Shown here: one piece after another, positions 19,279-63,960 of the stretch | Position numbering within the stretch: position 1 is the first letter of the stretch | How the letters are laid out: every line of letters begins with the position of its first letter | Assembly: GCA_027310625.1 (NCBI GenBank) | Contig: DAIDAM010000003.1 | Coordinates: 67,278 to 131,277, forward strand | From: a bacterium | GTDB lineage: Bacteria; Patescibacteriota; Minisyncoccia; UBA6257; 2-01-FULL-56-20 | Length of the DNA: 64,000 nucleotides | Direction of reading: 5' to 3' | Notes under the pieces: generated by a model | Databases searched by the model: none | Told to the model about the DNA's origin: nothing | Seen by the model: the letters and a program-made list of their open reading frames with translations, nothing else | Program-made: the position numbers and the translations under genes

Positions 19279-19279
19279 C

Positions 19280-20110: not shown

Positions 20111-20145
20111 TAAGAAATTGTAATTCGCCTTGCTCATAACAATTT

Positions 20146-20697: not shown

Positions 20698-20705
20698 GTT
20701 TTCTA

Positions 20706-21059
20706 TTATGCTGTTTTCTTTGTCTCCGCAGGCGCTGCCGGTTGAACAGCGGTTTCGGCTTTTTGCTCAAGCTCCCTTTGTATTCTCCCTCCGTGCTTCA
20801 CGAATTTCCTCGTGGGGGCGAACTCGCCGAGGCGGTATCCAACCATGTCTTCGCTGACTTTCACTTCCACAAAATTCTTTCCGTTGTGCACCGCAAACGT
20901 ATATCCGACCATTTCCGGAGAAATCTCCGAAGAGCGCGACCACGTTTTAATCGGCGTTCCCTCGCCGGGTTTCCCGCGCGATATCTTCTTCAATATGTCA
21001 GGCGCCACATAGGGCGGTTTTTTTGATGATCTGGACATCTCTTTTGCTTTTATCGGCAT
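20706..21059 (-). CDS. rpsS: 30S ribosomal protein S19
   Basis: S19 signature. Confidence 0.92.
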
Positions 21060-21142
21060 AAATCAGCTATCATCCGCATCTATCAGCGTAGTTAAGGTTG
21101 AACGCTGATTTATGCTGATTCTGCCGATAGACGCTGATGTAT
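21060..21142. repeat. intergenic palindromic element, ATCAGC/GCTGAT family
   Basis: inverted ATCAGC…GCTGAT arms. Confidence 0.6.
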
Positions 21143-21967
21143 TTATTTTTTACGCCGCTGGATAATCATCTTATTCGACCACTTCTTTTTGTTCCTCGTT
21201 TTTCTGCCGCCGGTTATCTTCCCCCAAAGGGTTTTGGGACGGCGCGTGCCGCGCGGCTGTCTTCCCTCGCCTCCTCCGTAGGGGTGGTCAACGGGATTCA
21301 TCGCCGTGCCGCGGACCGTCGGTCTTATTCCGAGCCATCGCGAACGACCGGCTTTTCCGATAGTGGTCAGGTTGTGCTCCGGATTGGAAACCTGTCCGAG
21401 TGAAGCGTAACCTTCCCACTGCGCGCGCCTGATTTCTCCCGAAGAAAGTTTGAGGTCAGTGTAGCCGTTGGCGTTTGCCAAAATCTCGGCGTAGGAGCCG
21501 GCAGAACGCGCCAACTGCCCGCCGCGTCCGGGGTTGAGTTCAATGTTGTGCACCTGATATCCGACGGGAATATTTTTGAGTTTCATCCTGTTTCCCGCAT
21601 TGAGCGGAGCGGACTCGGCGGAAATTATTTCAGAACCAACTTTCAAACCGTCGGGCGCAAGAATGTAGCGGCGCTCGCCGTCGCCGTATTTCAAGAGGGC
21701 TATGAAGGCGGTTCTGTAAGGATCGTATTCTATGGTTTCAACTTTCGCGGGTTGATTGAATTTGTTCTGCAGAAAATCAACCATGCGGTAAAGTTTCTTG
21801 TGGCCGCCGGATTGATGCCGCACGGTTATTCTGCCGCTGTTCCCTCTGCCGGCATGCGCTTTAAGTTTTTTTGTCAGCGGCTTGTGCGGTTCAACTTTTG
21901 AAAGCGGCGAATAATCAGGGCGAACGGCGTGCCGTTTTGACGGAGTTGTGGGTGTGTATGTTTTCAT
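21143..21967 (-). CDS. rplB: 50S ribosomal protein L2
   Basis: L2 signature. Confidence 0.95.
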   Translation of the reverse strand: MKTYTPTTPSKRHAVRPDYSPLSKVEPHKPLTKKLKAHAGRGNSGRITVRHQSGGHKKLYRMVDFLQNKFNQPAKVETIEYDPYRTAFIALLKYGDGERRYILAPDGLKVGSEIISAESAPLNAGNRMKLKNIPVGYQVHNIELNPGRGGQLARSAGSYAEILANANGYTDLKLSSGEIRRAQWEGYASLGQVSNPEHNLTTIGKAGRSRWLGIRPTVRGTAMNPVDHPYGGGEGRQPRGTRRPKTLWGKITGGRKTRNKKKWSNKMIIQRRKK

Positions 21968-21986
21968 GCTAGTTTTTCTTAATGAG

Positions 21987-22125
21987 CGTATGCGAATTTA
22001 GAAACAACTTGCACCGAGCACATAAAATTACCGACTGAATGATGAAGTGGTTTTGCTGCTCGATTGCAATTTTCTGTTTTTGCTGATTTCATGATTGTTA
22101 TTTTATGTGCTCGGTAGATATTGCA
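21987..22125. repeat. MITE-like element, second near-identical copy of the GCACCGAGCACATAAAAT element
   Basis: ~90% identity to 19985-20110. Confidence 0.7.
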
Positions 22126-22141
22126 CATCTAAATTTTACGT

Positions 22142-22414
22142 TTAGGTAATATCTATCTTTTGCCCTTTTTTCAGCGTTACAACCGTTTTCTTGTAACCTT
22201 CTTTCGCGCCCGTCTTTCCGCGAAAAATTTTAGTCCTCGGCTTGTTTGTAATCGTTGCAACTTTCAAAACATCAACTCCATAAAGTTTCTTTATGTGTTT
22301 TTTTATTTCGTTTTTGGTCGCGTCCGGCTGGACAATAAAAACATATTTTCCCTCCTTGCTCAAGTCGGTTGCCTTCTCGGTGACATGCGGTTTTTTGATA
22401 ATAAATTTATTCAT
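22142..22414 (-). CDS. rplW: 50S ribosomal protein L23
   Basis: L23 signature. Confidence 0.92.
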   Translation of the reverse strand: MNKFIIKKPHVTEKATDLSKEGKYVFIVQPDATKNEIKKHIKKLYGVDVLKVATITNKPRTKIFRGKTGAKEGYKKTVVTLKKGQKIDIT

Positions 22415-22480
22415 CTCGAATACTTGTTCCCGAACGGCTTTCGCGAATATTCGCGAATCAATTCGAGATTAATTTGTGAT

Positions 22481-23128
22481 TTACTTTATTCTGTAATGTT
22501 TTTCTATTGTCGGTATAGCCTTTTGGTCAATGAAAACGTTTTTATGTCTCATTATTTCGTAAACATTGAGAGATTCAGGATTCAGAACTTCAGTTTTCTG
22601 AAGATTGGAAGAAGCTCTCGAAATTTTTTTGTTTCCCGAGTTTGGGACAAAAAGAACATCGTATTTTTTGGAATTCTTTTTCATCTCCGTAAGATTTCTC
22701 AAAAGTCCTGCAAGCACTTTTGTTTTCGGCGCTTCTATTTCAAGCGTGTCAAAAAATCTCATTTCTCCGTCCTTAAGTTTCTTTGAAAGAACGCTGAAGA
22801 GAGCTGTCCTTTTCATTTTTTTGTTTATTTTCTGCGAATAATTTCTCTCTTTTGTCGGCCCATGCGCCTTCCCGCCTCCTTTCCAAAGCGGAGAACGGAT
22901 GGAACCGTGCCGCGCGCGCCCGGTTCCTTTTTGTCTCCACGGCTTTCTCCCTCCGCCCCGAACTTCGCCGCGGCTCTTCGCGTGCGCCCAAGGTATCCTT
23001 TTGTTCGCAAGATAAGCATTGACCACCTGCGAAACGAGCGCTTCTCTCCAAGGCGCGCCGAAAACCGCGTCAGGCAAATCGATTTCTCCAACCTTCTCGT
23101 TTTTTAAATTAAATAATTCTTTTTTCAT
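22481..23128 (-). CDS. rplD: 50S ribosomal protein L4
   Basis: L4 signature. Confidence 0.93.
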   Translation of the reverse strand: MKKELFNLKNEKVGEIDLPDAVFGAPWREALVSQVVNAYLANKRIPWAHAKSRGEVRGGGRKPWRQKGTGRARHGSIRSPLWKGGGKAHGPTKERNYSQKINKKMKRTALFSVLSKKLKDGEMRFFDTLEIEAPKTKVLAGLLRNLTEMKKNSKKYDVLFVPNSGNKKISRASSNLQKTEVLNPESLNVYEIMRHKNVFIDQKAIPTIEKHYRIK

Positions 23129-23257
23129 CTAACTTTAAATTCTAAATACGAAATTCGAAATTCTAAACAATATCTAAATTCTAAATTTCAAACGGGTTTG
23201 TAATTTGTGATTTGTTGTTTAGGATTTGTTTCAAATTTAGTGCTTCGTGCTTCGGAT
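23129..23257. repeat. intergenic palindromic element, AAATTCTAAAT…ATTTAGAATTT family; also at 16634-16694 and 63113-63233
   Basis: inverted AAATTCTAAA/TTTAGAATTT arms. Confidence 0.6.
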
Positions 23258-23821
23258 TTATATTTTAGATATCTGTAAAAGTCCTCCGCGCGCGCCGGGA
23301 ACCGCGCCTTTAATCATCAAGATGTTTTTATCCGCGTCCACGCCGGCGATTTTCAGATTTTTTACAGTCACTCTCTCGCCACCCATGCGTCCCGCCATTT
23401 TTCTTCCCGGAAAAACTTTCTGCGGCGCCGTGGGACCGATTGAGCCCGGTGCGCGCCAGCGATTTTTCTGCCCGTGCGTTTTCGGTCCGCCGGCGAACCC
23501 GTGTCTCTTGACTACTCCCTGAAACCCTCGCCCCTTGGAAACACCGATTACCTTCACCATGTCGCCTTCTTTGAAAACCGAAATGTCAATGACATCGCCG
23601 ACTTTGAGGTTTTCCTTGTCACTGGTCACTGGTCGCTGGTCGCTCAATCGGAACTCGCGCCGTTTCTTCCCGTCAGTGATTTGAACTGCTTCATATCCGT
23701 CTTTTTCCTTTGTTCGTAGCAAAGCGACTTTATTTTTGGAAACTTCAACGAGCGTCACAGGAGTGACCTTGCCGTCTTTCCAAACCTGGCTCATGTTCAG
23801 TTTTCTGCCTAAAATAAACAT
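23258..23821 (-). CDS. rplC: 50S ribosomal protein L3, with an in-frame heptamer-repeat insertion (…SDQRPVTSDKE…)
   Basis: L3 signature; CTGGTCA/CTGGTCG tract at 23616-23650. Confidence 0.93.
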   Translation of the reverse strand: MFILGRKLNMSQVWKDGKVTPVTLVEVSKNKVALLRTKEKDGYEAVQITDGKKRREFRLSDQRPVTSDKENLKVGDVIDISVFKEGDMVKVIGVSKGRGFQGVVKRHGFAGGPKTHGQKNRWRAPGSIGPTAPQKVFPGRKMAGRMGGERVTVKNLKIAGVDADKNILMIKGAVPGARGGLLQISKI

Positions 23822-23900
23822 CTTTTTTATCGCTCGAATAAGCGAATATTACGAATTTACGAATTCGTATGTTCGTAAAAATTCGTAAATTCGCGCGATA
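23822..23900. repeat. intergenic palindromic element, ACGAATTT family
   Basis: cgaataagcgaatattacgaatttacgaattcgtatgttcgtaaaaattcgtaaattcg. Confidence 0.6.
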
Positions 23901-24163
23901 CCTAACAAAAACGCCGCCAAGGCATAGCCCCGCGGCCATATCCTTGTGGAATCCGCCCTGGGCGGACCATTAAAGAGACGGACAAAGTGTATATTAAACA
24001 AAGCAAGGTTGTCAACCAGGCAGTAGAAATGCGATTTGGATTAAAAAACTCAATCGCCGCAGGCGATTTTGGTCGCATTTTCGTTACCTGATCAATCGCA
24101 ACAAAAAAACCCGCGGTCAGGTTGACCCGGGTGGGCAGTAGGTCTGCCCGGTCCTTGCTGGAT

Positions 24164-24472
24164 TCAGCTGGCACGTTGCTGGCGAAGTTTCTCCGATGCT
24201 TCCATCAGCCCTTTCTTTATCTTTCGGCGCTCGGCGGCGACGCGGGCTTTCTCGCTAGCGATGTGGGCGAGAAGTCCGTCTATGGGCATACGCCACGCCC
24301 AAAGGTTATATTTTTCACGGAAAGCCGCTTCGATGGCGTCATGGTTCGCGACAATCTCCGACGCGTTTACAAGTCTCACCAAAACGTACAAAGCTAAATC
24401 TTCTCCGGGAGCATTCCCGATCGTCCTGACGACATCCACGATCGCCTCGTGGAAAGGCTTCGGTCCTGTCAT
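24164..24472 (-). CDS. hypothetical protein (102 aa) in a high-GC patch inserted between rpsJ and rplC
   Basis: ORF in ~58% GC segment; interrupts the conserved rpsJ-rplC adjacency. Confidence 0.45.
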   Translation of the reverse strand: MTGPKPFHEAIVDVVRTIGNAPGEDLALYVLVRLVNASEIVANHDAIEAAFREKYNLWAWRMPIDGLLAHIASEKARVAAERRKIKKGLMEASEKLRQQRAS

Positions 24473-24547
24473 GTTCTTTCTCCTATTCGGTTAGTAATTA
24501 GCACATAGAAATCCAAACACAAAATTGGACTACGTGCAATAGCAACC

Positions 24548-24573
24548 AAAAACCGCCTCGAGGCGGTTTTTGG
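24548..24573. terminator. bidirectional rho-independent terminator-like hairpin aaaaaccgcctcgaggcggttttt directly 3' of rpsJ
   Basis: perfect 8-bp GC stem flanked by A/T runs. Confidence 0.65.
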
Positions 24574-24575
24574 TT

Positions 24576-24905
24576 TCAAGCCATCTTAATTTCAACATCC
24601 ACCCCTGCCGGCAAATTCAGATTGGAAAGCGATTCGATTATTTTTTGACTGGGGTTGGTGATGTCTATCAGGCGTTTGTGGATGCGGAGTTCAAACTGTT
24701 CGCGGGAATCCTTGTCAACGAAAGTGGAGCGGTTGACGGTGTATCTTTTTATTTCCGTCGGCAAAGGAATCGGGCCGATGATTTTCGCGTCGTTTCTTTC
24801 CGCCGCCTCGATTATCTGCTTTGCGGAATTGTCTATAAGCTTGTGGTCGTACGCCTTCAAGCGCAGGCGCAGTTTTTGCGGCAGTTCGGTTTCCTTCTTG
24901 GCCAT
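24576..24905 (-). CDS. rpsJ: 30S ribosomal protein S10
   Basis: S10 signature. Confidence 0.93.
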
Positions 24906-25026
24906 ACCTTTTATTGATTCACACTAGATTTCTCACAATAAGTATCTACTAGTTTCTATTAGTATCAATTAGTTTCAGTGTGATACTTGTAGAAATTTGC
25001 TTCGCGATACTGATTGAAACTAATTG
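24906..25026. repeat. intergenic palindromic element, GTTTCTA…ATTAGTTTC/TTGCTTCGCGATACTGATTG family
   Basis: inverted repeats; shared core TTGCTTCGCGA. Confidence 0.6.
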
Positions 25027-26226
25027 TTACTTGATTATCTTGGTAACCACTCCGGCTCCCACCGTTTTGCCTCCTTCACGGATGGCGAACCTCTGCTTTT
25101 CTTCAAGAGCGACGGGTGAAATAAGTTTCACGCTGACGTTGACGGTGTCTCCCGGCATAACCATCTCCGTTCCCTGCGGCAAAGCGACGTCACCCGTAAC
25201 ATCCGTCGTTCTGATATAAAATTGCGGTTTGTAACCGGTGAAGAACGGCGTATGTCTTCCGCCTTCCTCCTTGGAAAGCACGTAGACCTCCGCTTCAAAG
25301 TCCGTGTGAGGAGTAACGCTCCCCGGTTTTGCGACAACCTGTCCCCTTTCAACGTCCTCTTTCTTAAGACCGCGGAGGAGAACTCCGATGTTGTCGCCAG
25401 CAAGACCCTCGTCAAGAATTTTATTGAACATTTCAATTCCGGTGACGACGGTTTTCTGCGTCGGCTTCAAGCCGATTATCTCAACTTCTTCGTTGACTTT
25501 CACTTTCCCGCGCTCCGCCCTGCCGGTAACAACCGTGCCGCGCCCTTCTATGGAGAAAACATCTTCAACGGGCATAAGAAAAGGTTTATCAAGCTCTCTC
25601 ACCGGCTCCGGAATGTAATCGTCGAGCGCTTTGACGAGGTCGAGAACCGGCTTGGCGTCCGGGTCGTCGGCTGATTTCACGTTGAGCGCTTTCAAAGCCG
25701 AGCCGCGGATGACCGGGGTGTTGTCGCCGTCAAAATTGTATTTCTTCAAAAGTTCGCGCACTTCCGACTCCACAAGGTCAATAAGTTCCTTGTCGTCCAC
25801 CATATCGCATTTGTTGAGAAACACGACGATTCTCGGAACGCCGACTTGGTATGCAAGAAGAATGTGCTCCCGCGTCTGGGGCATCGGGCCGTCGGTGGCG
25901 GCGACGACAAGAATCGCGCCGTCCATCTGCGCCGCGCCGGTAATCATGTTCTTGATGTAGTCCGCGTGACCGGGCGCGTCAATGTGCGCGTAGTGCCTTT
26001 TGTCCGATTCGTATTCCGAGTGGTGAAGAGCAATGGTTATGCCGCGCGCTTTTTCCTCCGGCGCGTTGTCAATCTGATCAACGCCTTCCTCCTTTTTCGC
26101 AAGCCCCTTCATGAAAAGGACGTGCGTCATCGCCGCGGTCAAAGTCGTCTTGCCGTGGTCAACGTGACCGATTGTTCCGACGTTTACGTGCGGCTTGCCT
26201 CTTACGAATTTTTCTTTTTCAGCCAT
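25027..26226 (-). CDS. tuf: elongation factor Tu
   Basis: [19 protein letters not shown] GTPase motifs. Confidence 0.97.
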
Positions 26227-26401
26227 TTTTTACTTACTAGACATTAGTCATCAGACATCAGTTAACAGAAGTTTTTGCAATTTTCCGTATTCCTGATTTC
26301 TGATTACTGATTACTGATTTCTGTTTATTTTTACGACCTGTTTTTAAACGGTTCGATAATTCTACTCCTGAACCATACTTTGTCAAGGAGATCTGTGGAT
26401 A
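26227..26401. repeat. intergenic element rich in CATCAG/CTGATT repeats
   Basis: acatcagacatcagttaacag … ctgatttctgattactgattactgatttctg. Confidence 0.55.
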
Positions 26402-28528
26402 TCACTTCTTTTTGCCCTCGATAATCAGCTGCGCCACGTTTTGCGGCGCTTGCTCATATCTATCAAACTCCATATTGAATGAACCCCTGCCCTGCGTCAG
26501 CGAGCGGAGCGAAGTCGCATAGCCGAACATTTCCGAAAGCGGAACTTTGGCGTCTATAATTTTCACGTTTGTCCTGTCGCCTATCGTTTCTATCTTTCCT
26601 CTCCTTGAGTTTATATCTCCCGTGACTTCGCCGAGGAAGTTTTGCGGAATTATCACTTGCACTTTCATTATCGGTTCGAGAATCACCGGTTTCGCGCGCT
26701 TCGCCGCCTCCTGAAAAGCGATTGAGCCGGCGATTTTGAAAGCCGCTTCCGAAGAGTCAACTTCGTGAAAAGAACCGTCGTAGAGGGCGACTTCCGCGTC
26801 AACCATCGGATAATGCGCAAGCACTCCTTTATCAAGCGCCTCTCTCACGCCTTTCTCAACGGCGGGAATGAACTCGTTCGGGATTATCCCTCCCCTTATT
26901 TCGTTCTCAAAAACGAATCCCTTTCCTCTTTCAAGCGGCTTCACGCGCAGCCATACGTGACCGTATTGCCCGCGTCCGCCCGATTGTCTGATGTATTTTC
27001 CTTCCGCCTCCGCTTCGCCGGTTATCGTTTCCTTGTAAGCGACCTGCGGACGCCCGACGTTCGCTTCCACGCTGAATTCTCTTTTCATTCTGTCAACGAT
27101 TATTTCAAGGTGAAGCTCGCCCATTCCGGAAATAATCGTTTCGCCGGTTTCGGGGTCGCCGGCAACGCGGAAAGTCGGGTCTTCGTCGGCGAGCCGGCGA
27201 AGCGCGATGCCCATTTTTTCCTGGTCGGCTTTCGTCTTCGGCTCAATTCTTATGCCGATGACCGGCTCGGGGAAAACAATCTTTTCAAGAACAACCGGGG
27301 AGTCGGGACTGCAAAGCGTGTCGCCGGTGCCGGTGTTTTTGAGACCGACTATCGCGGCTATCTCGCCCGCGTAAACCTCTTCCACTTCTTCCCGCTGGTT
27401 GGCGTGCATCCGCACAATTCTTCCGACGCGCTCCTGCTCGCCTTTCGTCGCGTTCAGAACGTAAGAACCGCGTTTCAGAACGCCCGCGTAATTTCTGAAA
27501 TAAGTCAAACTGCCCACGTAAGGGTCGTTGGCGATTTTGAAAGCAAGCGCCGTAAACGGTTCGGCGTCGTCGGGTTTTCTTGAAATTTCCTCTCCTGTTT
27601 TCGGATTACTTCCCTTAACCGGAGGCAAATCGAGCGGCGAAGGAAGATAATCAACGACCGCGTCCAGAACCAGCTGCACTCCTTTGTTTTTGAGCGCCGA
27701 GCCCGTGAACACCGGAACAATTTTGTTCGCTATCACGGCCTTTCGAAGCGCGCGCCGCAATTCATCGAGCGTGATTTCTTTTTCGGCGAGATATTTTTCC
27801 ATTACGGCATTGTCGGAGTCCGCAATCGCTTCGATAAGTTCGTGACGATACTTTTTAACATCCGCTTTCATCTCTTCGGGAACGGGGATTTCAACGATGC
27901 GTTCCCCTTTATCGCCGTGGAATTCAAAAGCTTTTTCCTGCAGTAAATCAACGACGCCGCGGAAAGTCGATTCAATTCCGAGCGGCAACTGCACGCGATA
28001 AGCGTGCGGCGTAAGGCGTTCCCTTATTGAGGCAAAGCTGCGTTCAAAGCTCGCGCCCATGCGGTCAAGCTTGTTGATGAAGCAAATTCGCGGAACATTG
28101 TATTCGTCGGCGTAGCGCCAGTTTGTCTCGGACTGCGGCTCGACGCCGGCGACGCCGTCAAAAACGACGACCGCGCCGTCAAGAACGCGGAGCGAGCGCT
28201 TGACCTCCACGGTGAAATCAATGTGTCCGGGAGTGTCAATGAGATTTATCCTGTGCTCGTATTCTTTCCTGGTGCCTGGTGCCTGGTTCCTGGTCACTGC
28301 ATAGGTCGGCGTCCAGAAGGCCGTCGTCGCCGCGGCCGTAATCGTTATGCCGCGCTCTCTTTCCTGCTCCATCCAGTCCATCACCGTGTCGCCCTCGTGA
28401 ACCTCGCCGATTTTATACGAAACGCCGGTGTAAAAAAGCACGCGCTCGGAAACGGTAGTTTTCCCAGCATCTATATGAGCAATAATTCCTATATTACGAG
28501 TTTTTTCGATCGGATAAGTTCGCGGCAT
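26402..28528 (-). CDS. fusA: elongation factor G, with a short in-frame heptamer-repeat insertion near the N-terminus ([12 protein letters not shown])
   Basis: EF-G GTPase and domains II-V; CTGGTGC x4 tract at 28268-28300. Confidence 0.96.
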
Positions 28529-29003
28529 TGATTTATCGCACGAATTTACGAATCTTTACGAACATACGAATTATTATTAACAATTCTCTTAAAAATAACA
28601 CCTTTAGACGTAAAATTTGCTAGGATGGCGAGTGGCAAATTGCTTGCTTTGAGATAGTTAAAAATCTGCTCCGCGTTATGACGAGAAAACGCCACACCCT
28701 TTTTAATCTCAATTATTACTTTTTCTTCAACTAAAAAATCGCATCTTTGTCTGCCAACTGCTTTACCATGAAACATAACGGGCAACAAAACTTCTCGCCT
28801 AAATTTTAATCCTGCATCCTCGAATGCTAATGCCACTGCGCGTTGATAATAATTTTCCGAGTAACCAGAGCCGAGTGCATTGCTGACATCGAATAGCGTT
28901 CCAACAATTTTGTAGCTCAGCTCGGGCTCAATAATGTCGCTCCTTCGCAACTTTCTCTCGCTCATAATGATTCGTAAGTTCGTAATATTCGCTTATTCGC
29001 GCG
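28529..29003. repeat. ACGAATTT-family palindromic element whose two arms (28529-28560 and 28966-29003) are separated by an inserted GxxExxY gene
   Basis: left arm atcgcacgaatttacgaatctttacgaacatacgaatt; right arm attcgtaagttcgtaatattcgcttattcgcgcgat. Confidence 0.6.
28546..28965 (-). CDS. GxxExxY family protein (PD-(D/E)xK-like; the family is associated with 23S rRNA intervening sequences)
   Basis: [21 protein letters not shown]…[13 protein letters not shown] motif pattern of the GxxExxY family. Confidence 0.75.
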
Positions 29004-29004
29004 A

Positions 29005-29472
29005 TCAGCGGGCAAAGTGCGCGAACGCCCTGTTGGCTTCCGCCTGCCGGTGCATATCCAGCTTCTTTTTCACCGCGTCTCCTTCATTTTTGGCGGCGGC
29101 AATTATTTCAGCGGCAAGTTTTTCATGCATCGGTTTTCCTTTTTTCGAGCGCGCGGCGTTGACAATCCAGCGCACACCGAGGATGAAACGGCGTTCGGGA
29201 CGCACCTCGCGCGGAATCTGGTAGTTCGCGCCTCCGACACGCTTTGAAAAAACTTCCAGCATCGGCGATGCGTTTGTAAGCGCCTGCTCAAAAACGCTGA
29301 CTGGCTCTTTTTTTGTTTCTTTTTTTATTTTCTCAAAAGCGCCGTAAACCGCCTTTCGCGCCGCGCTTCTCTTCCCTTCCCTCATCACATAATTTATCAG
29401 GCGCCCCACATCAACTCGCCCGTAAAGCGAATCCGGCTGATGATGTTTTTTGTAAACTCGTTTCTTTCTCAT
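29005..29472 (-). CDS. rpsG: 30S ribosomal protein S7
   Basis: S7 signature. Confidence 0.93.
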   Translation of the reverse strand: MRKKRVYKKHHQPDSLYGRVDVGRLINYVMREGKRSAARKAVYGAFEKIKKETKKEPVSVFEQALTNASPMLEVFSKRVGGANYQIPREVRPERRFILGVRWIVNAARSKKGKPMHEKLAAEIIAAAKNEGDAVKKKLDMHRQAEANRAFAHFAR

Positions 29473-29550
29473 TTAAGTATCGCACGAATTTACGAATTTT
29501 TACGAACATACGAATTCGTAAGTTCGTAATATTCGCTTATTCGAGCGATT
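29473..29550. repeat. intergenic palindromic element, ACGAATTT family
   Basis: cgcacgaatttacgaatttttacgaacatacgaattcgtaagttcgtaatattcgcttattcgagcg. Confidence 0.6.
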
Positions 29551-29985
29551 TTATCCTTTCGGTCTTTTTGCCCCATATTTCGACCGCTGCTGCTTCCTGT
29601 TTTCCACTCCGGTCGTATCCAAAACGCCGCGGACGATGTGATATCTGATTCCCGGCAGGTCCTTCACGCGTCCGCCGCGAATCATCACAATCGAGTGTTC
29701 CTGAAGCGTGTGCCCCTCGCCCGGAATGTAAGCGGTGACTTCCATGCCGTTGGTCAGCCGCACGCGGGCTACTTTCCGAAGAGCGGAGTTCGGTTTCTTG
29801 GGCGTGGTCGTGAAGACCTTCAAACAAACGCCGCGCTTGAACGGCGAACCGGAATAAACCGGACGATTTTCAAGCGTGTTGAAATAGTACGACAAAGCCG
29901 GCGATTTTGTTTTCGCTTTTATTTTCTTCCTTCCTTTTTTTATGAGTTGTCTGATTGTGGGCATGATAATAAGTAAATTAGACAT
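29551..29985 (-). CDS. rpsL: 30S ribosomal protein S12; probable start MPTIRQL at 29962
   Basis: S12 signature (PNSALRKV…). Confidence 0.93.
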
Positions 29986-30182
29986 CAGTCATTAGTAATC
30001 AGGGTTTATTAAACCCACAAACTAACTTCTGATGTTTGATAACTGATGACTAAATTTCAGTCGCTCAAAATTCTAAATCAAAATCCAACCTTGTGTCAAT
30101 GTTTGCTTCGCAAACCGTGGACTAACACTGGTGCGGAGCAACACTAACGCGGACTAACACCGATTTGTGATTTGTCGGGCCA

Positions 30183-37876: not shown

Positions 37877-38578
37877 ATGACGAGACCGCGAATAATTCGG
37901 AACGAAATTTACCATGTCCTTAACCGTGGCGTAGATAAGCGAGCAATTTTCTCAGACGATAACGACCGCCTGCGGTTTATTCATAACCTCTTTGAGTTTA
38001 ACGACACCGCACCTGCACCCAATCTCGCCTACCATCTCGGCAAAAAACAATCTAAGGAAGTCGGACTTCCTAAGATTGAGAGGAGACGGCGGGAACTTTT
38101 GGTGGAAATTCTCGCGTTTTGCATGATGAAAAATCACTATCATCTTTTGGTCAGGCCGAAGGCTGATAATTTTCTAACGTTATTTATGAGAAAACTGGGA
38201 ACAGGGTACACCAATTATTTTAATCAAAAATATAAGCGGAGCGGAGCGCTTTTCCAAGGGAAATACAAAGTGGTGCACATTAACAATGATAGACATTTTA
38301 TTCATCTCCCCTACTACATTCACTTTAATCCATTAGACGGCTTTGCTCCGAGTTGGAGAGAAAAGGAAATAAAGGACCACAAAAAAGCAATGGAATTTTT
38401 GGAGAACTATCGCTGGAGCAGTTTTCCGGACTATATCGGCAGGAAAAATTTTCCTTCAATCACGCAAAGAGAATTTTTACTAAAGTTTTTCGGCGGCCCG
38501 GAGGAATACAAACGCAAAACGACAGAATGGCTAAAAGCAATCGATTTCGAGGCAATACACGACGTTGCACTAGAATAA
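37877..38578 (+). CDS. REP-associated tyrosine transposase (RAYT, IS200-like Y1 transposase); contains an internal REP copy at 38052-38074
   Basis: HxH motif (NHYHLLV) and catalytic Tyr region (LPYYIHFNP); flanked by REP palindromes. Confidence 0.8.
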   Translation: MTRPRIIRNEIYHVLNRGVDKRAIFSDDNDRLRFIHNLFEFNDTAPAPNLAYHLGKKQSKEVGLPKIERRRRELLVEILAFCMMKNHYHLLVRPKADNFLTLFMRKLGTGYTNYFNQKYKRSGALFQGKYKVVHINNDRHFIHLPYYIHFNPLDGFAPSWREKEIKDHKKAMEFLENYRWSSFPDYIGRKNFPSITQREFLLKFFGGPEEYKRKTTEWLKAIDFEAIHDVALE

Positions 38579-46385: not shown

Positions 46386-48944
46386 ATGTATCGCTTTTTA
46401 GAAATTTTTCCCGGAGCGCTTTCGTGGCTGACTCTTATCTTACTTGTTTCTCTTTCCCGCTACGCGCCGGCGTTCGTCGCCGTTTTCATCATACTTTTTG
46501 ACATCTACTGGCTTTTGAAAACGATTTATCTCTCGCTGCATCTCCGCTCAACTTTTTCGGTTATGAAAAAAAACCTGAAGGTGAACTGGCTCAATGAGCT
46601 GAAGGCACTGCCGCATAATCCCAATGGCCCGAATAGAATCCAAATGCCCCGAATTATAGAAAAGGATCTCTCTTATAAACTAAGCGGGGTTTTCTTCAAA
46701 GTTCATAACCAACTCGGCAGGTTCTGCAGAGAGCGTCAATATGGCGATGCCGTCGCAAAGGAACTTGAATCCCTCGGCGTAAATTTTCAGCGCGAAGTTG
46801 CCGTTGCGGTCGCCGGGCGAAAATCCAATTTCGTAGATTTTGTCGTTGAAAGCAAAATCGCAATAGAACTGAAGACGAAAGACATAATTGACAAAGAAGA
46901 TTATTTCCAACTTCAAAGATACCTTAAAGCGCTGGGATTGGAATTGGGCATAATAGTCAACTTTAGAAGAAAACACTTGAATCCCAAACGCGTTCTCAAT
47001 TCTGACTTCCTTTACAAGTATTCGGCTGATTCAGATACATTCGGCAATTCGGATTATGTGGTCAATAGATATTCGGACAATTCGGATTCATTCGGATATT
47101 CGGATTATGTGAAATCCTGGGAAGACATTTATCATTTGGTGATATTGCCGATGTACCGCGAGCCGTACGAGGTCGTGAAAGGAAGTTTTGAAAGCATATC
47201 TAAAGGAAACTATCCGCTGGAAAAGTTAATTGTCGTCCTGGCGACGGAAGAACGCGCCGGCGCCGAAGCGAGGAAAACGGCTGAGAAAATCAGGCGCGAG
47301 TTCGGCGGCAAATTTTTCAAGTTTTTGATTACCACGCACCCCGCGAATCTCCCCGGCGAAATTCCCGGCAAGGGTTCCAACGAAACCTGGGCGGCGAAAG
47401 AGGCGAAAAGATTAATCATTGACCCACTGGTCAATGCGCAGACCTACGCAGACAACACGCAGACCGACGCAGAAAACGATTTTCTGTATCCAGACCTGAC
47501 ATATGAAATCAGAGGTGCGATATTTTCCATTAAGAAAAAGCTCGGCCTCGGACACAAAGAAGTTGTTTATCAAAAAGCACTGGAAGAGGAATTTAATCGA
47601 CTAGGTTTGAATTTCGAAAAAGAAAAAACGGTGGATATTGCATATAATAACAAAAAAGTTGGTGTCTACCGCCCAGATTTTGTAATTGAGGATAAAATTA
47701 TTTTGGAACTGAAGGCATTACCATTTATGGGCAAATATGAAAAAAGGCAAGTTTGGCAGTATTTAAAAGGAACGGAATATAAACTAGCTATGTTGGTAAA
47801 CTTCGGCGGTAGCGATATTCGCATAGATAGAATAGTTTACGACACAGCTCGCGCAAGTCAGCGTAAGTCTGCGTTAAGTCAGCGAGAGTCAGCGCTGAAA
47901 TATGAAAATGTTTTAGTGTCGGTTTTCGACATTGACACACAGATATTTCCGGAGTATTTCGGGCGCCTCACATATGTCTTTTTGAAATCCGAAGACAAAT
48001 TGCAGGCGATTTACCAGCCGATACCGCTTTTCATAAATAACATCTACGACGCGCCGGCGCTCGCGCGCGTGATTTCCTTTTCAAGCACCTTCTGGCAGAT
48101 GATGCAGCAGTCGCGGCCGGAACGGCTGACGTCTTTTTCGTCGCAGTCAATCCCCTTGCGGGCGCTCATTGACATCGGCTACTGGCACAAAAACGTCGTC
48201 TCCGAGGACTCGCGGATTTTCTGGCAGTGCTATCTCCGCTATCACGGGAACTTCCGCGTCGAACCGCTTTTTTACCCGGTTTCGATGGACGCCAACGCCG
48301 CGCCGACATTTTGGAGAACGCTCAAAAATAATTACTTGCAGCACCGCCGCTGGGCCTGGGGCTGCGAAAACATTCCCTACTTGCTCTGCGGCAAACATAA
48401 TCCGAATCCACGAATGCATCCGAATAACACGAATAGGAGTCCAGATAATAAATTAGATTCGGAACATTCGGATAGATTCGGGGATTCGGATTATGCGGAG
48501 GGTTTCCTCCACAACAAAAAAATCCCTCTCCGCAAAAAGCTCTACTGGTCGTTCAATGTAATTGAAGGATTCCATTCCTGGGCGACGAACGCGCTGATAA
48601 TTTTCGCTCTCGGCTGGCTGCCCGTTCTTTTGGGCGGAGAAGGTTTCGGGATTTCCATTTTGTCGCGGAGCCTGCCTTCGATTACAAGATTCATCATTCA
48701 ACTCTCGATGGTCGGAGTCGCCACCGCCGCTTTCTTCAGCATTCTTCTTCTGCCGCCGCGAAAAGAACCTCTCGAATGGCATCAGTATATTTGGTATCTC
48801 CTCCAATGGCTTCTTCTGCCCGCGACACTCATAATTTTCGGGTCCATCCCCGCGCTCGAGGCGCAAACGCGGCTGATGGTCGGCGGAAAATGGCGGCTCG
48901 GATTCTGGCCGACGCCGAAAACGAGAACCAATAATAGAAGCTAG
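46386..48944 (+). CDS. processive family-2 glycosyltransferase (cellulose-synthase-like; GKGxN, DxD, Q(H)RRW motifs) carrying two in-frame GxxExxY domain insertions (~46644-47000 and ~47481-47840) plus heptamer-repeat tracts
   Basis: GT2 motifs VILPMYREP, GKGSNETWAAKEA, VFDIDTQ, QHRRWAWG; inserted segments each align with the free-standing GxxExxY gene at 28546. Confidence 0.8.
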   Translation: MYRFLEIFPGALSWLTLILLVSLSRYAPAFVAVFIILFDIYWLLKTIYLSLHLRSTFSVMKKNLKVNWLNELKALPHNPNGPNRIQMPRIIEKDLSYKLSGVFFKVHNQLGRFCRERQYGDAVAKELESLGVNFQREVAVAVAGRKSNFVDFVVESKIAIELKTKDIIDKEDYFQLQRYLKALGLELGIIVNFRRKHLNPKRVLNSDFLYKYSADSDTFGNSDYVVNRYSDNSDSFGYSDYVKSWEDIYHLVILPMYREPYEVVKGSFESISKGNYPLEKLIVVLATEERAGAEARKTAEKIRREFGGKFFKFLITTHPANLPGEIPGKGSNETWAAKEAKRLIIDPLVNAQTYADNTQTDAENDFLYPDLTYEIRGAIFSIKKKLGLGHKEVVYQKALEEEFNRLGLNFEKEKTVDIAYNNKKVGVYRPDFVIEDKIILELKALPFMGKYEKRQVWQYLKGTEYKLAMLVNFGGSDIRIDRIVYDTARASQRKSALSQRESALKYENVLVSVFDIDTQIFPEYFGRLTYVFLKSEDKLQAIYQPIPLFINNIYDAPALARVISFSSTFWQMMQQSRPERLTSFSSQSIPLRALIDIGYWHKNVVSEDSRIFWQCYLRYHGNFRVEPLFYPVSMDANAAPTFWRTLKNNYLQHRRWAWGCENIPYLLCGKHNPNPRMHPNNTNRSPDNKLDSEHSDRFGDSDYAEGFLHNKKIPLRKKLYWSFNVIEGFHSWATNALIIFALGWLPVLLGGEGFGISILSRSLPSITRFIIQLSMVGVATAAFFSILLLPPRKEPLEWHQYIWYLLQWLLLPATLIIFGSIPALEAQTRLMVGGKWRLGFWPTPKTRTNNRS
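47000..47115. repeat. ATTCGGA/ATTCGGC heptamer-type repeat tract encoding …DSDTFGNSDYVVNRYSDNSDSFGYSDY… inside the GT2 gene; a similar tract at ~48405-48490
   Basis: period-7 direct repeats. Confidence 0.7.
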
Positions 48945-59450: not shown

Positions 59451-59876
59451 TTAGCGTTTCTGCCATTGCGGGGCCCTCCTCGCTTTCTTGAGTCCGTACT
59501 TCTTCCTTTCCACCATTCGCGGGTCGCGAGTCAAAAATCCGAAGGCGCGGAGTTTGTTTTTTAGTCCGCTGTCAAACATAACAAGCGCGCGGGCAAGACC
59601 GAGGCGAACCGCCTCCGCCTGCGCATTCATTCCCCCGCCTGAAACCTTCGCGCTAACGTCAAATTTCTCCGAGAGAGCGAGTTTATCCAAGGGAGACGAA
59701 GCGACAGCGCTTGAAAAACCCGTGTTGAAATACTCCCCTGAAACTTCGCTGTTTATAAGAAAATTTCCTGTTCCTTTCGTTATCCGGACGCGCGCGACGG
59801 CTGTTTTTCTCCTTCCCACGCCCTCAAAATATCGTATAGGTTTTACGGATTGCTGTTTTTCTTGTTTTTTAGCCAT
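59451..59876 (-). CDS. rpsI: 30S ribosomal protein S9
   Basis: S9 signature. Confidence 0.93.
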   Translation of the reverse strand: MAKKQEKQQSVKPIRYFEGVGRRKTAVARVRITKGTGNFLINSEVSGEYFNTGFSSAVASSPLDKLALSEKFDVSAKVSGGGMNAQAEAVRLGLARALVMFDSGLKNKLRAFGFLTRDPRMVERKKYGLKKARRAPQWQKR

Positions 59877-59990
59877 TGTTTTATCAGCGAATAACGAATC
59901 TTTTTCTAATTTATCCCGATTGCATCGAGGACTCTCGACGGCGTCGGAGCGAATTCGTTTATTCGCAATTGATTAGTTATTCGTTGATTA

Positions 59991-60353
59991 TCATTTTTCA
60001 AAAACAAGATTTTTCAGGCGGCGACTGCTCAAAAAATTCTTGGGAAGCATTCTTCTTATCGCCTCTCTTATTACGCCCTTCGGATTTCTTTCAAACGCCT
60101 GCTCAAAAGTAAGCTTTTTCAAGTGTCCCTGATATCCCGTGTGCCTGTAATAAACTTTGTTTTTGAATTTCCTCCCGGTAAGCGTTATGTCGCGGTAATT
60201 TTTCAAAAGAACTTTGTCCGCGCCGATAAGCCGCGGATTGTAATTCGCCGATTTCTTGCCCTGCAGAATCGTCGCGATTTCGGAGGCCAGTCGTCCCAAT
60301 CTTTTATTTTTGGCGTCAATTATATAGTCCATCTTTTTCGTAATCAGCATCAA
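59991..60353 (-). CDS. rplM: 50S ribosomal protein L13
   Basis: L13 signature. Confidence 0.92.
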   Translation of the reverse strand: MMLITKKMDYIIDAKNKRLGRLASEIATILQGKKSANYNPRLIGADKVLLKNYRDITLTGRKFKNKVYYRHTGYQGHLKKLTFEQAFERNPKGVIREAIRRMLPKNFLSSRRLKNLVFEK

Positions 60354-60354
60354 T

Positions 60355-60545
60355 CAGTCGTCATCCGCACCCGCCTGCCAACGCCTGCCAGTGAAGTTAT
60401 GATATAGTTTCAAAGTAAATGTCATCTTTTTGTTATTGCCGAGTTTCATTGGATGGCTATGGCGGGCAGGTAAATCAGCGTCAAAAGTATTCCCCGCAGC
60501 GATGAACGCTGATAAATGCTGATTTTGGGCGGATTAACGCTGATG
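60355..60545. repeat. intergenic palindromic element, ATCAGC/GCTGAT family
   Basis: catcaatcagtcgtcatccgc … cgctgataaatgctgattttg. Confidence 0.55.
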
Positions 60546-60557
60546 CGCAAGATTTTA

Positions 60558-60911
60558 TTACACAAACTCGATTGTCGCAACCCGCGCGCTGTCTCTTTTT
60601 CTAGTTTTCCCTCCTTTCATTATCCGAAGGAAGCCGCCGTTTCTGTCCTTGTAGCGCGGAGCTATGTCTTCCATCAGTTTCCCGACAAGGTTTTTATCGT
60701 GAAGCCGGCTCAAGAGGATGCGTCGCGAAGCCAAATCGCCCTTTTTTGCTATGGAAACCATTCTTTCGGTAATCGGCCGCATCTCTTTCGCTCTGATTTC
60801 CGTGGTCTCAATTTTCTCGTCGCGTATGAGATTGTTGACGAGATTTCTCAAAAACGATTTTCTCCTGCCGGTCAGGCGATGAAATTTTCTTCCTTTTTTT
60901 CTGTGGCGCAT
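60558..60911 (-). CDS. rplQ: 50S ribosomal protein L17
   Basis: L17 signature. Confidence 0.92.
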   Translation of the reverse strand: MRHRKKGRKFHRLTGRRKSFLRNLVNNLIRDEKIETTEIRAKEMRPITERMVSIAKKGDLASRRILLSRLHDKNLVGKLMEDIAPRYKDRNGGFLRIMKGGKTRKRDSARVATIEFV

Positions 60912-60998
60912 AGGAGTATTCGCGAATGATGCTAATTGTTTCTAAATAATGCGAATTTATTAGCGTTATTCTGTCAAGATTCGCGTTATTGGCGATTA

Positions 60999-61778
60999 CT
61001 ATTGTTTCTTCGGTCTTCCCCTTTTCTTCGGCGCCTTCTCTCCGCCTTCCTCTTTCACGCCGCCGTGACCCATCTCAAACTCCTGAACGCCGACATCGGA
61101 AACTTTCTTGAAGTGGTCGTTGAGAATGTTCGCCGTTTTGTGAAGCGCCGATGAAGGACTGATGGTGCCGTCGGTTTCTATTTCAATCCGCAGACGGTTG
61201 TAGTCGGTGCGCTCGCCGACACGCATGTTTTCAACCGTGTAATTCACTCTTCTGACCGGAGAGAAAAACGCATCCACTCCTATGAGCCCCACGGTCAATT
61301 TTTTTTCCTTTCTTGATTCCACCGGCGAATAGCCGAGTCCTTTCTCAACCGTTATTTCCACGTCCAACTCGGCGTTTTTTGAAGTAAGGGAGGCAATGTG
61401 CTCGTCGGGATTGATAATTTCTACATCGGCGTTTTTCTTTATGTCCGCCGCCGTGACTTCGCCCTCGCCCTTCGCTTTCAGCGTCAAGGTTTGCGTTTCA
61501 TCAGTGTGCATTCTGAAACGAATCTTTTTGAAATTCAGGGTCAGTTCCACCAAGTCCTCTTTAACGCCGGGCAGGGTGGAAAATTCATGCTGGGCGTTCT
61601 TTACCTTTATGTAGGTGACGGCGGCTCCTGGAAGAGACGAAAGAAGAGCACGCCGAAGAGCGTTCCCTATCGTAAGGCCGTAGCCGGCGTAGAGTCCTTC
61701 TACTTCAAAAACTCCTTTTTTGCCGTTTTCCGAAACGGTTTTTATCCCGACTGTTTCGCTTAAGTATGTGTAATTCAT
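60999..61778 (-). CDS. rpoA: DNA-directed RNA polymerase alpha subunit lacking the C-terminal domain; ends in a basic AT-hook-like tail (KAPKKRGRPKKQ)
   Basis: alpha N-terminal dimerisation/assembly domain conserved; only 259 aa; next gene starts 88 nt downstream. Confidence 0.88.
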   Translation of the reverse strand: MNYTYLSETVGIKTVSENGKKGVFEVEGLYAGYGLTIGNALRRALLSSLPGAAVTYIKVKNAQHEFSTLPGVKEDLVELTLNFKKIRFRMHTDETQTLTLKAKGEGEVTAADIKKNADVEIINPDEHIASLTSKNAELDVEITVEKGLGYSPVESRKEKKLTVGLIGVDAFFSPVRRVNYTVENMRVGERTDYNRLRIEIETDGTISPSSALHKTANILNDHFKKVSDVGVQEFEMGHGGVKEEGGEKAPKKRGRPKKQ

Positions 61779-61882
61779 GAATTTAAGAGATTAGATATCA
61801 GTTAACAGACATTAGGGCGTTTTACTCTGATTACTGATGTTTGACTTTTGATGTCTAATATCTGATGTCTAATTACTATGTC

Positions 61883-62491
61883 CTATTTATTAAATGATTC
61901 GACCAATAAGTTTATTTCCACCGGTATCTCTGCCTGACGCGGCAATTCAATCACTTTTCCTTCCATTTTGTCGGCGTCAAACGCCAACCAAGCAGGCATT
62001 TCGTAGTTTTTGAGATTCTCCTTCAGGTTCTTGAAAGTCTGCTTGGCTTTGGATTCCTCCCTCACGCTGACGGTGTCGTTCATTTTTACGAGAAAACCGG
62101 GAGAACGCACCCGCTTTTTATTCACGAAAATGTGCCCGTGAATTATAATCTGTCTTGCCTGCGAACGAGAAGGCGCGATGCCCATTCTGAAAACGACGTT
62201 GTCCAATCTGCGCTCAACAAGTTCCGTAATTTTTTCGATAGTGGAGGTGCGACTCCTTTCCGCATCTTTGAAGATTTTCCGCAGATTGTTTTCGTCTATG
62301 CCGTAAGTCAGTTTGAATTTCTGTTTTTCTTTCAGTTGCTTTCCGAAATCCGAAACGGAATGACGCTTCTGCCCGTGAGGGCCAGGTCTGTAGGGACGCC
62401 TGACCACCGCGCACTTCGGCGACTGACAGCGATAGCCCTTCAGGTGAAGGTGCTCGCCAAGCGAACGTTCCTTTTTTTCTTTTACTTTCAT
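61883..62491 (-). CDS. rpsD: 30S ribosomal protein S4
   Basis: S4 signature with N-terminal zinc-finger Cys. Confidence 0.93.
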   Translation of the reverse strand: MKVKEKKERSLGEHLHLKGYRCQSPKCAVVRRPYRPGPHGQKRHSVSDFGKQLKEKQKFKLTYGIDENNLRKIFKDAERSRTSTIEKITELVERRLDNVVFRMGIAPSRSQARQIIIHGHIFVNKKRVRSPGFLVKMNDTVSVREESKAKQTFKNLKENLKNYEMPAWLAFDADKMEGKVIELPRQAEIPVEINLLVESFNK

Positions 62492-62494
62492 GTT

Positions 62495-62660
62495 TTTATG
62501 GTATCCGCATTAATCAGCTGTCATCCGCATTTATCAGCGTTCTTGCTGTGAAAAAGTTTTTGACGCTGATTTACCTGCCCGCCGAAGCCCTCGCCTTGCC
62601 GAAGCCGACGGCGAAGCGCAGGTCGGCGCAGGCGGGTGCCGATTTTGACGGATTTATGCT
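62495..62660. repeat. intergenic element: ATCAGC/GCTGAT arms plus a GC-rich segment (GCCCTCGCCTTGCCGAAGCCGACGGCGAAGCGCAGGT) that is also found inside the mnmA 5' region (11858-11895)
   Basis: 38-nt near-identity between 62582-62620 and 11858-11895. Confidence 0.65.
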
Positions 62661-62671
62661 GATATTCCATT

Positions 62672-63109
62672 TCATATCCTTCTTGTTTTCGGCGGACGAG
62701 GGCCGTTATGGGGAACCGGAGTCACGTCTCTTATCGCCGTTATGTTTATTCCTCTATTTATAAGAGAGCGGAGGGCGGAATCTCTCCCGCTGCCGACCCC
62801 TTTCACAAAAACTTCCGCATCCTTCATTCCGTAAGGAGCGATTTTCTCCGCGATTATCGAAACGACCTTGGAAGCGGCGAAGGGTGTCGCTTTTTTCGGC
62901 CCCGAAAATCCCGATGAGCCCGACGAAGCCCAGGCAAGAACGCTTCCTTTCGTGTCGGTCACCGTTATCATCGTATTGTTATAGGTCGCGTTTATGTAAA
63001 TCTTTCCCTTCTCAACCGACTTGGATTTCTTCGAGCTTGCTTTCGGGGCAGCTTCCTGTTTTTCTTTTGCCGCCTCCGCGGCTTTTTCGACAACTTTTTT
63101 CTTGCCCAT
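62672..63109 (-). CDS. rpsK: 30S ribosomal protein S11; upstream ORF extension lies in a repeat element
   Basis: S11 signature; start MGKKKV. Confidence 0.92.
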   Translation of the reverse strand: MGKKKVVEKAAEAAKEKQEAAPKASSKKSKSVEKGKIYINATYNNTMITVTDTKGSVLAWASSGSSGFSGPKKATPFAASKVVSIIAEKIAPYGMKDAEVFVKGVGSGRDSALRSLINRGINITAIRDVTPVPHNGPRPPKTRRI

Positions 63110-63233
63110 GATTTTGATAAATCCTAAATTCGAAATCCGAAATTCTAAACAAATTCGAAATTCTAAATTCAAAACGTGTTTGAAATTTGTGATTTGGGAT
63201 TTGTTTAGTATTTAGAATTTAGTGCTTCGAATT

Positions 63234-63617
63234 TTACTTTAATTCCACCTTGCGTTTCCCGCTGCCGGCGGTCTTTCTCACATTGCCCCTGACGGTTCTT
63301 GAATTTGTTTTTGTCCTCTGGCCGCGGGTCGGCAGATGCTTGACATGCCTCGCTCCGCGGTACGTCTGGAGTTCTTTCAATCGCTGAATATTCCTCCTGA
63401 TTACCTGCCTGAGTTCCCCCTCAATGCGGAAATTCTTTTCTACAAACGTTTTTATGCGGTTTATCTCGTCGGGATTCAAATCCTTGACGCGCTTGTCGGG
63501 ACTGATTTTTGAAGAACCAAGTATGCGCCTGCTGCTCGGCAAACCGATGCCGTAAATATACGTCAGAGATGTTTCGATTCTTTTGTTGTCCGGTATGTTT
63601 ACTCCGAGCAATCTCAT
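63234..63617 (-). CDS. rpsM: 30S ribosomal protein S13
   Basis: S13 signature. Confidence 0.93.
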   Translation of the reverse strand: MRLLGVNIPDNKRIETSLTYIYGIGLPSSRRILGSSKISPDKRVKDLNPDEINRIKTFVEKNFRIEGELRQVIRRNIQRLKELQTYRGARHVKHLPTRGQRTKTNSRTVRGNVRKTAGSGKRKVELK

Positions 63618-63715
63618 GGTTTTATATTGTTCGTCGTTCGATCGCTTCGCTCGTTCAATTTGTTCGAATTGTTTTTACTTTGAACATTTCGAACTTCGAA
63701 CTTTTAACTGATAAT

Positions 63716-63829
63716 TTATCCCTGTCGCTGTTTATGTTTTGGATTCCTGCAGAGAATATAAAGGCGACCGCGACGCTTCGTTACCCTGCAATCCTTGCAC
63801 ATTTTTTTTATTGAACTTCGCACCTTCAT
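63716..63829 (-). CDS. rpmJ: 50S ribosomal protein L36 (37 aa; too short for the ORF track)
   Basis: hand translation [37 protein letters not shown] with the L36 zinc-ribbon pattern. Confidence 0.85.
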
Positions 63830-63839
63830 TGGTGTAAAT

Positions 63840-63960
63840 AAATTTCGCGAGCCGCAGGCGAGCAATAGTATCTACCAGTATCAACAAGTATCAAACGATA
63901 CTGATAGATACTCGGTTTTGCCGATACTTGCTCGGCATAAATGCCTCGCGATACCGATCG
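63840..63960. repeat. intergenic palindromic element, GTATCTACCAGTATCAA … family
   Basis: inverted repeats agtatctaccagtatcaacaagtatcaaacgatactgatagatact. Confidence 0.55.

Follow-up and report, generated by a model that had tools for sequence, protein, structure and literature searches.

How does a bacterial RNA polymerase (RNAP) hold on to its promoters when its alpha subunit lacks the C-terminal domain? In studies of bacterial initiation this domain is treated as near-universal, being the reader of UP elements and the docking site for class I activators. The N-terminal domain of alpha is enough for the core enzyme to assemble and for basal transcription, whereas UP elements and activators require the C-terminal domain (PMC8321222). 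The question is raised by the rpoA gene in a stretch of 64,000 nucleotides (hereafter the window; positions 67,278 to 131,277 of contig DAIDAM010000003.1, assembly GCA_027310625.1) from a bacterium of the Patescibacteriota. The alpha subunit (RpoA) encoded here has 259 amino acids and ends, after the N-terminal domain and a short linker, in a basic tail with the form of an AT-hook. On balance, and with modest confidence, we favour the view that this tail is a minimal, tethered DNA-binding element, which has taken over the DNA-tethering role of the lost domain.

The open reading frame (ORF) is a genuine, single-domain bacterial RpoA ortholog of a Liptonbacteria-like member of the Parcubacteria/Paceibacteria. 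The Pfam families PF01000 (E = 3e-32) and PF01193 (E = 1e-22), i.e., both halves of the alpha N-terminal domain, match the protein; for PF03118, the alpha C-terminal domain, there was no Pfam match at E <= 1 in the 259 residues. The NCBIfam rpoA models aligned only over model positions ~1-235 of 298-338. Two equivalog cut-offs were exceeded (NF003519, 280 vs 277 bits; TIGR02027, 254.5 vs 227.8 bits), and thus the protein is a bacterial ortholog, not an archaeal RpoD. The invariant GNALRR...SSLPG motif is kept in the alignment of the N-terminal domain, and alignments with 64 solved RpoA chains in the PDB were confined to query residues ~12-232 (E = 1e-50 to 1e-61). The initial annotation, made from the DNA letters and placed at positions 60999-61050 (the rpoA stop codon and the final 16 codons), had described an alpha subunit of 259 residues with the N-terminal domain only, and the domain matches and the comparison with model RpoAs bear this out. 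An identical protein is encoded in three independent assemblies (from separate sequencing runs) and in an NCBI metagenome-assembled genome (MAG). Because three independent assemblies agree, the short end is real and not an artefact of assembly.

The short architecture is shared by relatives. In the set of the 120 best-scoring database homologs (68-100% identity), all proteins are 245-290 residues long and contain the N-terminal-domain families PF01000 and PF01193 only; their source labels are Liptonbacteria (which lie within the Parcubacteria group of the Patescibacteria), Paceibacterota, Parcubacteria or Patescibacteria. Among species-representative genomes and metagenome contigs, a short RpoA was found in Liptonbacteria, Colwellbacteria and many Paceibacterota. 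A normal RpoA of 300-340 residues, with the ...GMGEKG..EIKKA... C-terminal domain, was found in Moranbacteria and in some Paceibacterota (e.g. L018, L031, L085, L094 and L099). As these groups retain the domain, its loss falls within the Parcubacteria and is not common to all of them. When RpoA sequences were clustered at 50%, the C-terminal domain was present in 88 of 150 representatives. The scans of genomes and metagenome contigs yielded only relatives with lysine-rich tails or with the domain, the peptide patterns used having biased the sample; the DNA of hook-bearing relatives was obtained separately, from contigs encoding hook-bearing RpoAs.

What remains beyond the N-terminal domain is a flexible segment with a basic end. 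An AlphaFold2 model of RpoA, built on a 48-sequence alignment, is folded at residues ~10-227, with a final helix at 208-227 and no secondary structure beyond residue 227. The predicted local distance difference test (pLDDT) score is below 50 at residues 238-254 and 257-259, with block means of 56 (231-240), 36 (241-250) and 46 (251-259). The basic end is preceded by a slightly acidic linker of ~22 residues (228-249), whose sequence varies among relatives, is poorly alignable in the homolog alignment and ranges in length from 4 to 49 residues. Among the 120 homologs, the linker has on average a net charge of -1.35, and the last 12 residues one of +4.9. The initial annotation had both the linker and the C-terminal domain absent, which is correct for the domain, but the linker, residues 228-249, is still there and disordered.

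The protein ends in ...GVKEEGGEKAPKKRGRPKKQ (also given as ...VQEFEMGHGGVKEEGGEKAPKKRGRPKKQ), with APKKRGRPKKQ as the last residues before TAG. The string K-K-R-G-R-P-K-K agrees with the definition of an AT-hook (an invariant G-R-P core, usually R-G-R-P, with K or R on both flanks, here K), as had been recognised from the DNA, and it falls in a segment predicted from pLDDT to be disordered, as AT-hooks are. In the 1252 six-frame segments of the window, KKRGRPKK is the sole strict AT-hook-type string. The idea that the hook is a motif found throughout the proteome was rejected, as this is the only strict match in the window and the RpoA hook is the sole in-frame flanked hook among the real genes in 62 kb of three relatives.

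A basic tail is nearly invariant among the homologs and the hook is frequent. At least five K or R residues in a nine-residue window of the last 30 residues were found in 119 of the 120 closest homologs (the one without a basic cluster looks frameshifted), and a [RK]GRP hook in 40 of them. The family consensus of the tail in the alignment is PKKRGRPKK. In 172 distinct tails from RpoAs without the C-terminal domain, [RK]GRP occurs in 43, whereas 0.16 were expected from within-tail shuffles (maximum 3 in 2000); for the flanked form, [KR][KR]GRP[KR][KR], the figures are 41 of 172 and 0.0015, an excess of about 27,000-fold. Patescibacteria RpoAs that are no more than 44-49% identical and whose linkers are unrelated carry the hook again (P0166, KKSKKRGRPKKTE; P0197, KKQKRGRPKKN; P0239, KPKKRGRPKKQD), and GRP comes 27-37 residues (median 29) after the N-terminal domain ends. 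In RpoAs bearing the C-terminal domain, no hook was found after residue 225 in any of the 139 examined.

The codons of the hook differ synonymously between the window and three relatives: Arg is AGG, AGA, CGC or CGG; Gly is GGA or GGC; and Pro is CCG, CCC or CCA. As the same hook is spelled with different synonymous codons, selection acts on the peptide and not on a nucleotide element, and a conserved RNA or DNA element in place of a peptide was rejected on these grounds. Judged from codons and shuffles, the hook motif is under selection at the level of the protein.

What is conserved is a basic patch on a tether, which has often been refined into a hook. Conservation of the tail among relatives, on which the initial annotation had made its proposal depend, applies to the basic patch (119/120) and not to the exact hook (40/120); the nearest Liptonbacteria mostly carry PKKKSKAKK-type tails. 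A start of PKK[KR] is common to hook-type and lysine-rich tails and was seen in 70 of the 120 homologs; [STA]PKK occurs in 53 of the 120 homolog tails, and we take it to resemble the SPKK minor-groove motif of histones.

The favoured explanation can be put as a series of steps. The lineage has lost the helix-hairpin-helix C-terminal domain of ~80 residues, leaving after the N-terminal domain a disordered linker of ~22 residues and a basic patch of nine residues, here the canonical AT-hook PKKRGRPKK. With a presumed alpha2 stoichiometry, i.e., two alpha subunits per polymerase, each enzyme would carry two tethered tails, which may contact DNA immediately upstream of the -35 element. The hook would lie in the minor groove and favour A/T, and lysine-rich variants would be held mainly by electrostatic attraction. 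What would be retained from the lost domain is tethered DNA binding, i.e., faster capture of DNA and upstream promoter contacts; activator docking would not have been replaced but given up. The loss of the domain, the disorder of the tail, the selection on the motif and its confinement to RpoAs without the domain are shown here; the binding of DNA, the A/T preference and the place on the promoter are inferred. Two flexibly tethered C-terminal domains speed the association of RNAP with DNA about 55-fold by a general tether mechanism, and it has been argued that any small tethered DNA-binding module would act alike (2026 preprint, bioRxiv 10.64898/2026.07.21.739884). A bolder form of this explanation, offered only tentatively, is that an AT-hook of nine residues on a tether of ~22 residues is a convergent replacement of the 80-residue C-terminal domain across a large part of the Parcubacteria, that A/T minor grooves upstream of -35 are read by the two hooks, which would make the capture of promoters faster, and that exchange with lysine-rich tails tracks shifts in promoter architecture.

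Several observations weigh against these explanations, in particular against their A/T-specific part. Only about a quarter to a third of the tails contain GRP. The nearest Liptonbacteria relatives (80-89% identity) have mostly PKKKSKAKK-type tails without a hook. By Fitch parsimony, at least 19 changes between hook and non-hook are required on a neighbour-joining tree built from the N-terminal domain, the exchange partner being plain lysine-rich tails (PKKKSKAKK). As the hook is present in a minority of tails and has been exchanged at least 19 times, A/T-specific reading cannot be the essential function. The Pfam AT_hook family (PF02178) scored 12.8 bits on the tail (E = 0.12; profile positions 1-9 of 13), which is below its 17.4-bit cut-off. 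An HMGA1 control with three hooks reached 16.2 bits in total and was likewise below the cut-off, so the cut-off is a poor discriminator where single hooks are concerned. One AT-hook on its own generally binds weakly.

Base composition does not help the A/T-specific part either. The GC content is 44-52% along the window, about 47% overall, and thus the AT-rich genome that the initial annotation had supposed was rejected. Sigma-70-type sites were found before rpsL (TTGACA-N18-TAGAAT) and before tuf (TTGACA-N16-TAGAAT); these are the strongest promoter-like sites in the window, and the 30 bp upstream of them are 53-57% A+T with no obvious A/T tracts. In a crude, small and noisy comparison of predicted promoters, which leans neither way, the A/T excess at -60..-37 was +0.10 in hook-bearing (n = 16), +0.11 in lysine-rich (n = 17) and +0.07 in domain-bearing (n = 37) relatives. 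The promoter spacer showed a similar A/T excess in the same comparison, and the excess can thus be explained as generic intergenic composition.

In the strictest form of replacement, the hook would read A/T tracts at -40 to -60 sequence-specifically, in place of the C-terminal domain at UP elements, with promoters that co-evolved with it. Such UP-element reading is plausible from the motif: the canonical hook is strongly enriched and selected, it is confined to RpoAs without the C-terminal domain, it keeps within a narrow range of distances from the N-terminal domain, A/T minor grooves are established targets of the C-terminal domain and of AT-hooks alike, and there is a precedent in WhiB7, in which an AT-hook contacts promoter DNA while the protein is sigma-bound (PMC8786299). 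However, many close relatives do without the hook, the genome is not AT-rich, and the small and noisy comparison gave no hook-specific A/T enrichment upstream of predicted -35 elements; we regard strict replacement as unlikely, and the substitution proposed in the initial annotation as partly supported. Could the basic tail instead bind something other than a promoter, such as nascent or ribosomal RNA, or an acidic surface (sigma region 1.1, a nucleoid protein or a ribosomal protein), for assembly, coupling or localisation? Basic disordered tails and AT-hooks can bind RNA too, other proteins here have lysine-rich extensions (e.g. the N-terminus of S11), and hook and lysine-rich tails appear interchangeable. 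Yet the tail occupies the place of a DNA-binding domain and appears only when that domain is absent, and there is selection for RGRP in exactly this order, for which charge complementarity by itself would give no need; a target of this kind is improbable.

It is very improbable that a separate domain gene, or a second, full-length rpoA paralog elsewhere in the genome, provides the function of the C-terminal domain in trans. A hidden Markov model (HMM) of the C-terminal domain, built on 26 sequences from Moranbacteria, Paceibacterota, Clostridia, WOR-3 and E. coli, returned nothing from the window translated in six frames (best E = 1.3) and nothing from 52 loci of relatives without the domain (545 kb around rpoA; best E = 1.7, to S13), whereas all 51 of the domain-bearing loci used as positive controls were recovered (51/51, E <= 2e-17). 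A separate C-terminal-domain ORF near rpoA was thus rejected within the 64-kb window and the 545 kb of relatives' flanks, the weak top matches being S13, and the search for a separate ORF that the initial annotation had called for found none in this range. An untethered C-terminal domain would presumably also lose its known mode of action. What speaks for supply in trans is that the range searched was 64 kb of this genome and about 20 kb around rpoA in relatives, and that two rpoA genes coexist in Francisella (PMC3294249). Also very improbable is a tail without specific function, i.e., a remnant of the interdomain linker drifting as the lysine-rich, low-complexity sequence typical of reduced genomes: the wide variation of the linker in sequence and length (4 to 49 residues) and the frequent changes of tail type would suit it, but not a basic cluster in 119 of 120 homologs, a hook about 27,000-fold over shuffles, or the conservation of that hook at 44-49% identity and across synonymous codon changes. 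That the gene call is truncated or frameshifted has next to no probability and was rejected, given the identical protein in three independent assemblies and an NCBI MAG, more than 100 homologs of the same architecture, and rplQ lying 87 nt past the stop.

Table 1. Coordinates of rpoA, its parts and the neighbouring genes in the window
Feature	Position	Strand	Evidence
rpoA, RNA polymerase alpha subunit without C-terminal domain, 259 aa	60999..61778	-	Pfam, NCBIfam and PDB matches
Alpha N-terminal domain, residues 1-227 (dimerisation; platform for beta/beta' assembly)	61098..61778	-	AlphaFold2, PDB alignments
Disordered linker, residues 228-249 (VSDVGVQEFEMGHGGVKEEGGEKA)	61032..61097	-	AlphaFold2 pLDDT, charge in homologs
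AT-hook motif, P250-K258 (PKKRGRPKK), then Q259	61005..61031	-	Motif, codon and family consensus evidence
rpoA stop codon TAG	60999..61001	-	ORF reading
rplQ (ribosomal protein L17), directly downstream of rpoA	60558..60911	-	ORF; PF01196 at orthologous position
rpsD (ribosomal protein S4), directly upstream of rpoA	61883..62491	-	ORF; PF00163/PF01479 in relatives' ortholog (L115, L118-L120)
rpsK (S11)	62672..63172	-	PF00411 over residues 56-165 of long ORF
rpsM (S13), the first large gene in the part of the operon that the window holds	63234..63617	-	ORF; PF00416 at orthologous position

The genes around rpoA form the run rpmJ-rpsM-rpsK-rpsD-rpoA-rplQ-rplM-rpsI, and this order is matched in Pfam-labelled relatives. 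In relatives, rpoD-alaS-...-infA lies 2-10 kb upstream of rpsM; the equivalent place here is just beyond the end of the window. The supercluster of ribosomal protein genes appears split in the window: ORFs resembling ribosomal proteins and translation factors (the genes of this block being named from ORF sequences only) lie at ~12200-30000, and the rpmJ-to-rpsI block at 59451-63865, about 46 kb apart on the same strand.

S11 (62672-63172, - strand) is extended at its N-terminus by a lysine-rich stretch of roughly 35 residues (MGKKKVVEKAAEAAKEKQEAAPKASSKKSKSVEKGK...), which precedes the Pfam domain beginning at residue 56 of the long ORF; the true start of rpsK is likely the ATG at 63109. In the spacer between rpsM and rpsK (63110-63235) there is an inverted repeat, long and imperfect, whose units resemble GAATTTCGAATTT. 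The pattern AGAATTTCGRATTTSGAATTT (<=3 mismatches) has four matches in the window, two at 63126-63171 and two at 23137-23164, against 0.08 expected, and ORF translations near 16.6, 17.3 and 49.2 kb suggest more degenerate copies of the spacer repeat. The repeat may be a small repeated intergenic element, of the repetitive extragenic palindromic (REP) or miniature inverted-repeat transposable element (MITE) type, or a terminator. At the site of this repeat-rich spacer, the hook-bearing relative GCA_964505005.1 (L118) has, at 8481-8789, a gene for a 102-residue protein of PF05635 (the 23S rRNA intervening-sequence protein family) between rpsM and rpsK.

Elsewhere in the window, there are possible traces of mobile DNA. 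A 139-residue ORF of the PD-(D/E)XK type (PDDEXK_3) lies at 28546-28965 (- strand), between a 708-residue ORF (26402..28528) and a 155-residue ORF (29005..29472), which look, by N-terminal sequence only, like fusA (EF-G) and rpsG (S7), respectively. At 46386-48944 (+ strand), an 852-residue ORF has a match to family-2 glycosyltransferases and two embedded PDDEXK_3 stretches. The PDDEXK_3 stretches may be an inserted mobile nuclease module. A 233-residue ORF at 37877-38578 (+ strand) contains an IS200-like Y1 transposase domain (PF01797, E = 7e-9).

With regard to RpoA, a very large group of uncultivated bacteria does without the alpha C-terminal domain. That a tethered basic patch, often an AT-hook, is kept in every examined lineage that lost the domain suggests that the indispensable role is tethered DNA capture, which can be reduced to a few residues, and that activator docking can be dropped in organisms with few regulators. 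If the bolder form of the explanation is true, no core RNA polymerase subunit would have been known before this one to use an AT-hook, and it would provide a natural experiment which separates the DNA tethering of the C-terminal domain from activator docking. The tail is relevant to promoter prediction in genomes of the candidate phyla radiation and is one more of the few AT-hooks known from bacteria.

Alpha subunits without the C-terminal domain are already known, as are AT-hooks; their combination, its selection and its distribution appear unreported. Our literature search turned up neither an account of RpoA with a basic or AT-hook tail nor a paper in which AT-hooks are mentioned together with Patescibacteria or the candidate phyla radiation. 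A single sentence in PMC8321222 says of the loss of the C-terminal domain that it "is also present in Parcubacteria" and cites Nelson and Stegen (2015); in the accessible text of that source the word "polymerase" is absent. The basic or AT-hook tail, its conservation and its distribution do not feature in the account of PMC8321222, and the loss is found here in only part of the Parcubacteria.

Compared with canonical RpoA (E. coli, B. subtilis, Thermus), the protein has the same, orthologous N-terminal domain, the same operon position and a flexible linker with a terminal element which plausibly binds DNA; what differs is that the PF03118 domain of ~80 residues and its activator-contact surfaces are absent, with a basic stretch of nine residues instead. 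The alphas of Hodgkinia and Tremblaya, which have reduced genomes, and of the Euglena plastid are likewise natural subunits with the N-terminal domain only (PMC8321222); the short alpha is lineage-wide here, in the 120 best-scoring homologs and in named Liptonbacteria, Colwellbacteria and Paceibacterota genomes. The alpha(1-235) of E. coli also consists of the N-terminal domain only and supports core assembly and basal transcription (PMC8321222). However, it is a laboratory construct without a DNA-binding tail, which loses UP-element and class I activation, whereas in the natural protein a linker and a basic end are retained; when RNAP lacks the C-terminal domains, its binding to DNA is about 55-fold slower (bioRxiv 10.64898/2026.07.21.739884).

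Archaeal RpoD and eukaryotic Rpb3 are also platforms resembling the alpha N-terminal domain without a C-terminal domain (there is a weak NCBIfam RpoD match here), but they are not known to carry an AT-hook tail. WhiB7 of mycobacteria has a C-terminal AT-hook; however, it is an accessory Fe-S regulator on sigma region 4 and not a core subunit, and the likeness in sequence is one of motif only. The AT-hooks of HMGA proteins (PF02178) have the same R-G-R-P core, K/R flanks and disordered setting, whereas each RpoA chain has only one hook (two per enzyme), placed at the very C-terminus of a subunit of an enzyme. The hooks of RpoA and HMGA are of independent origin, and their likeness is not homology.

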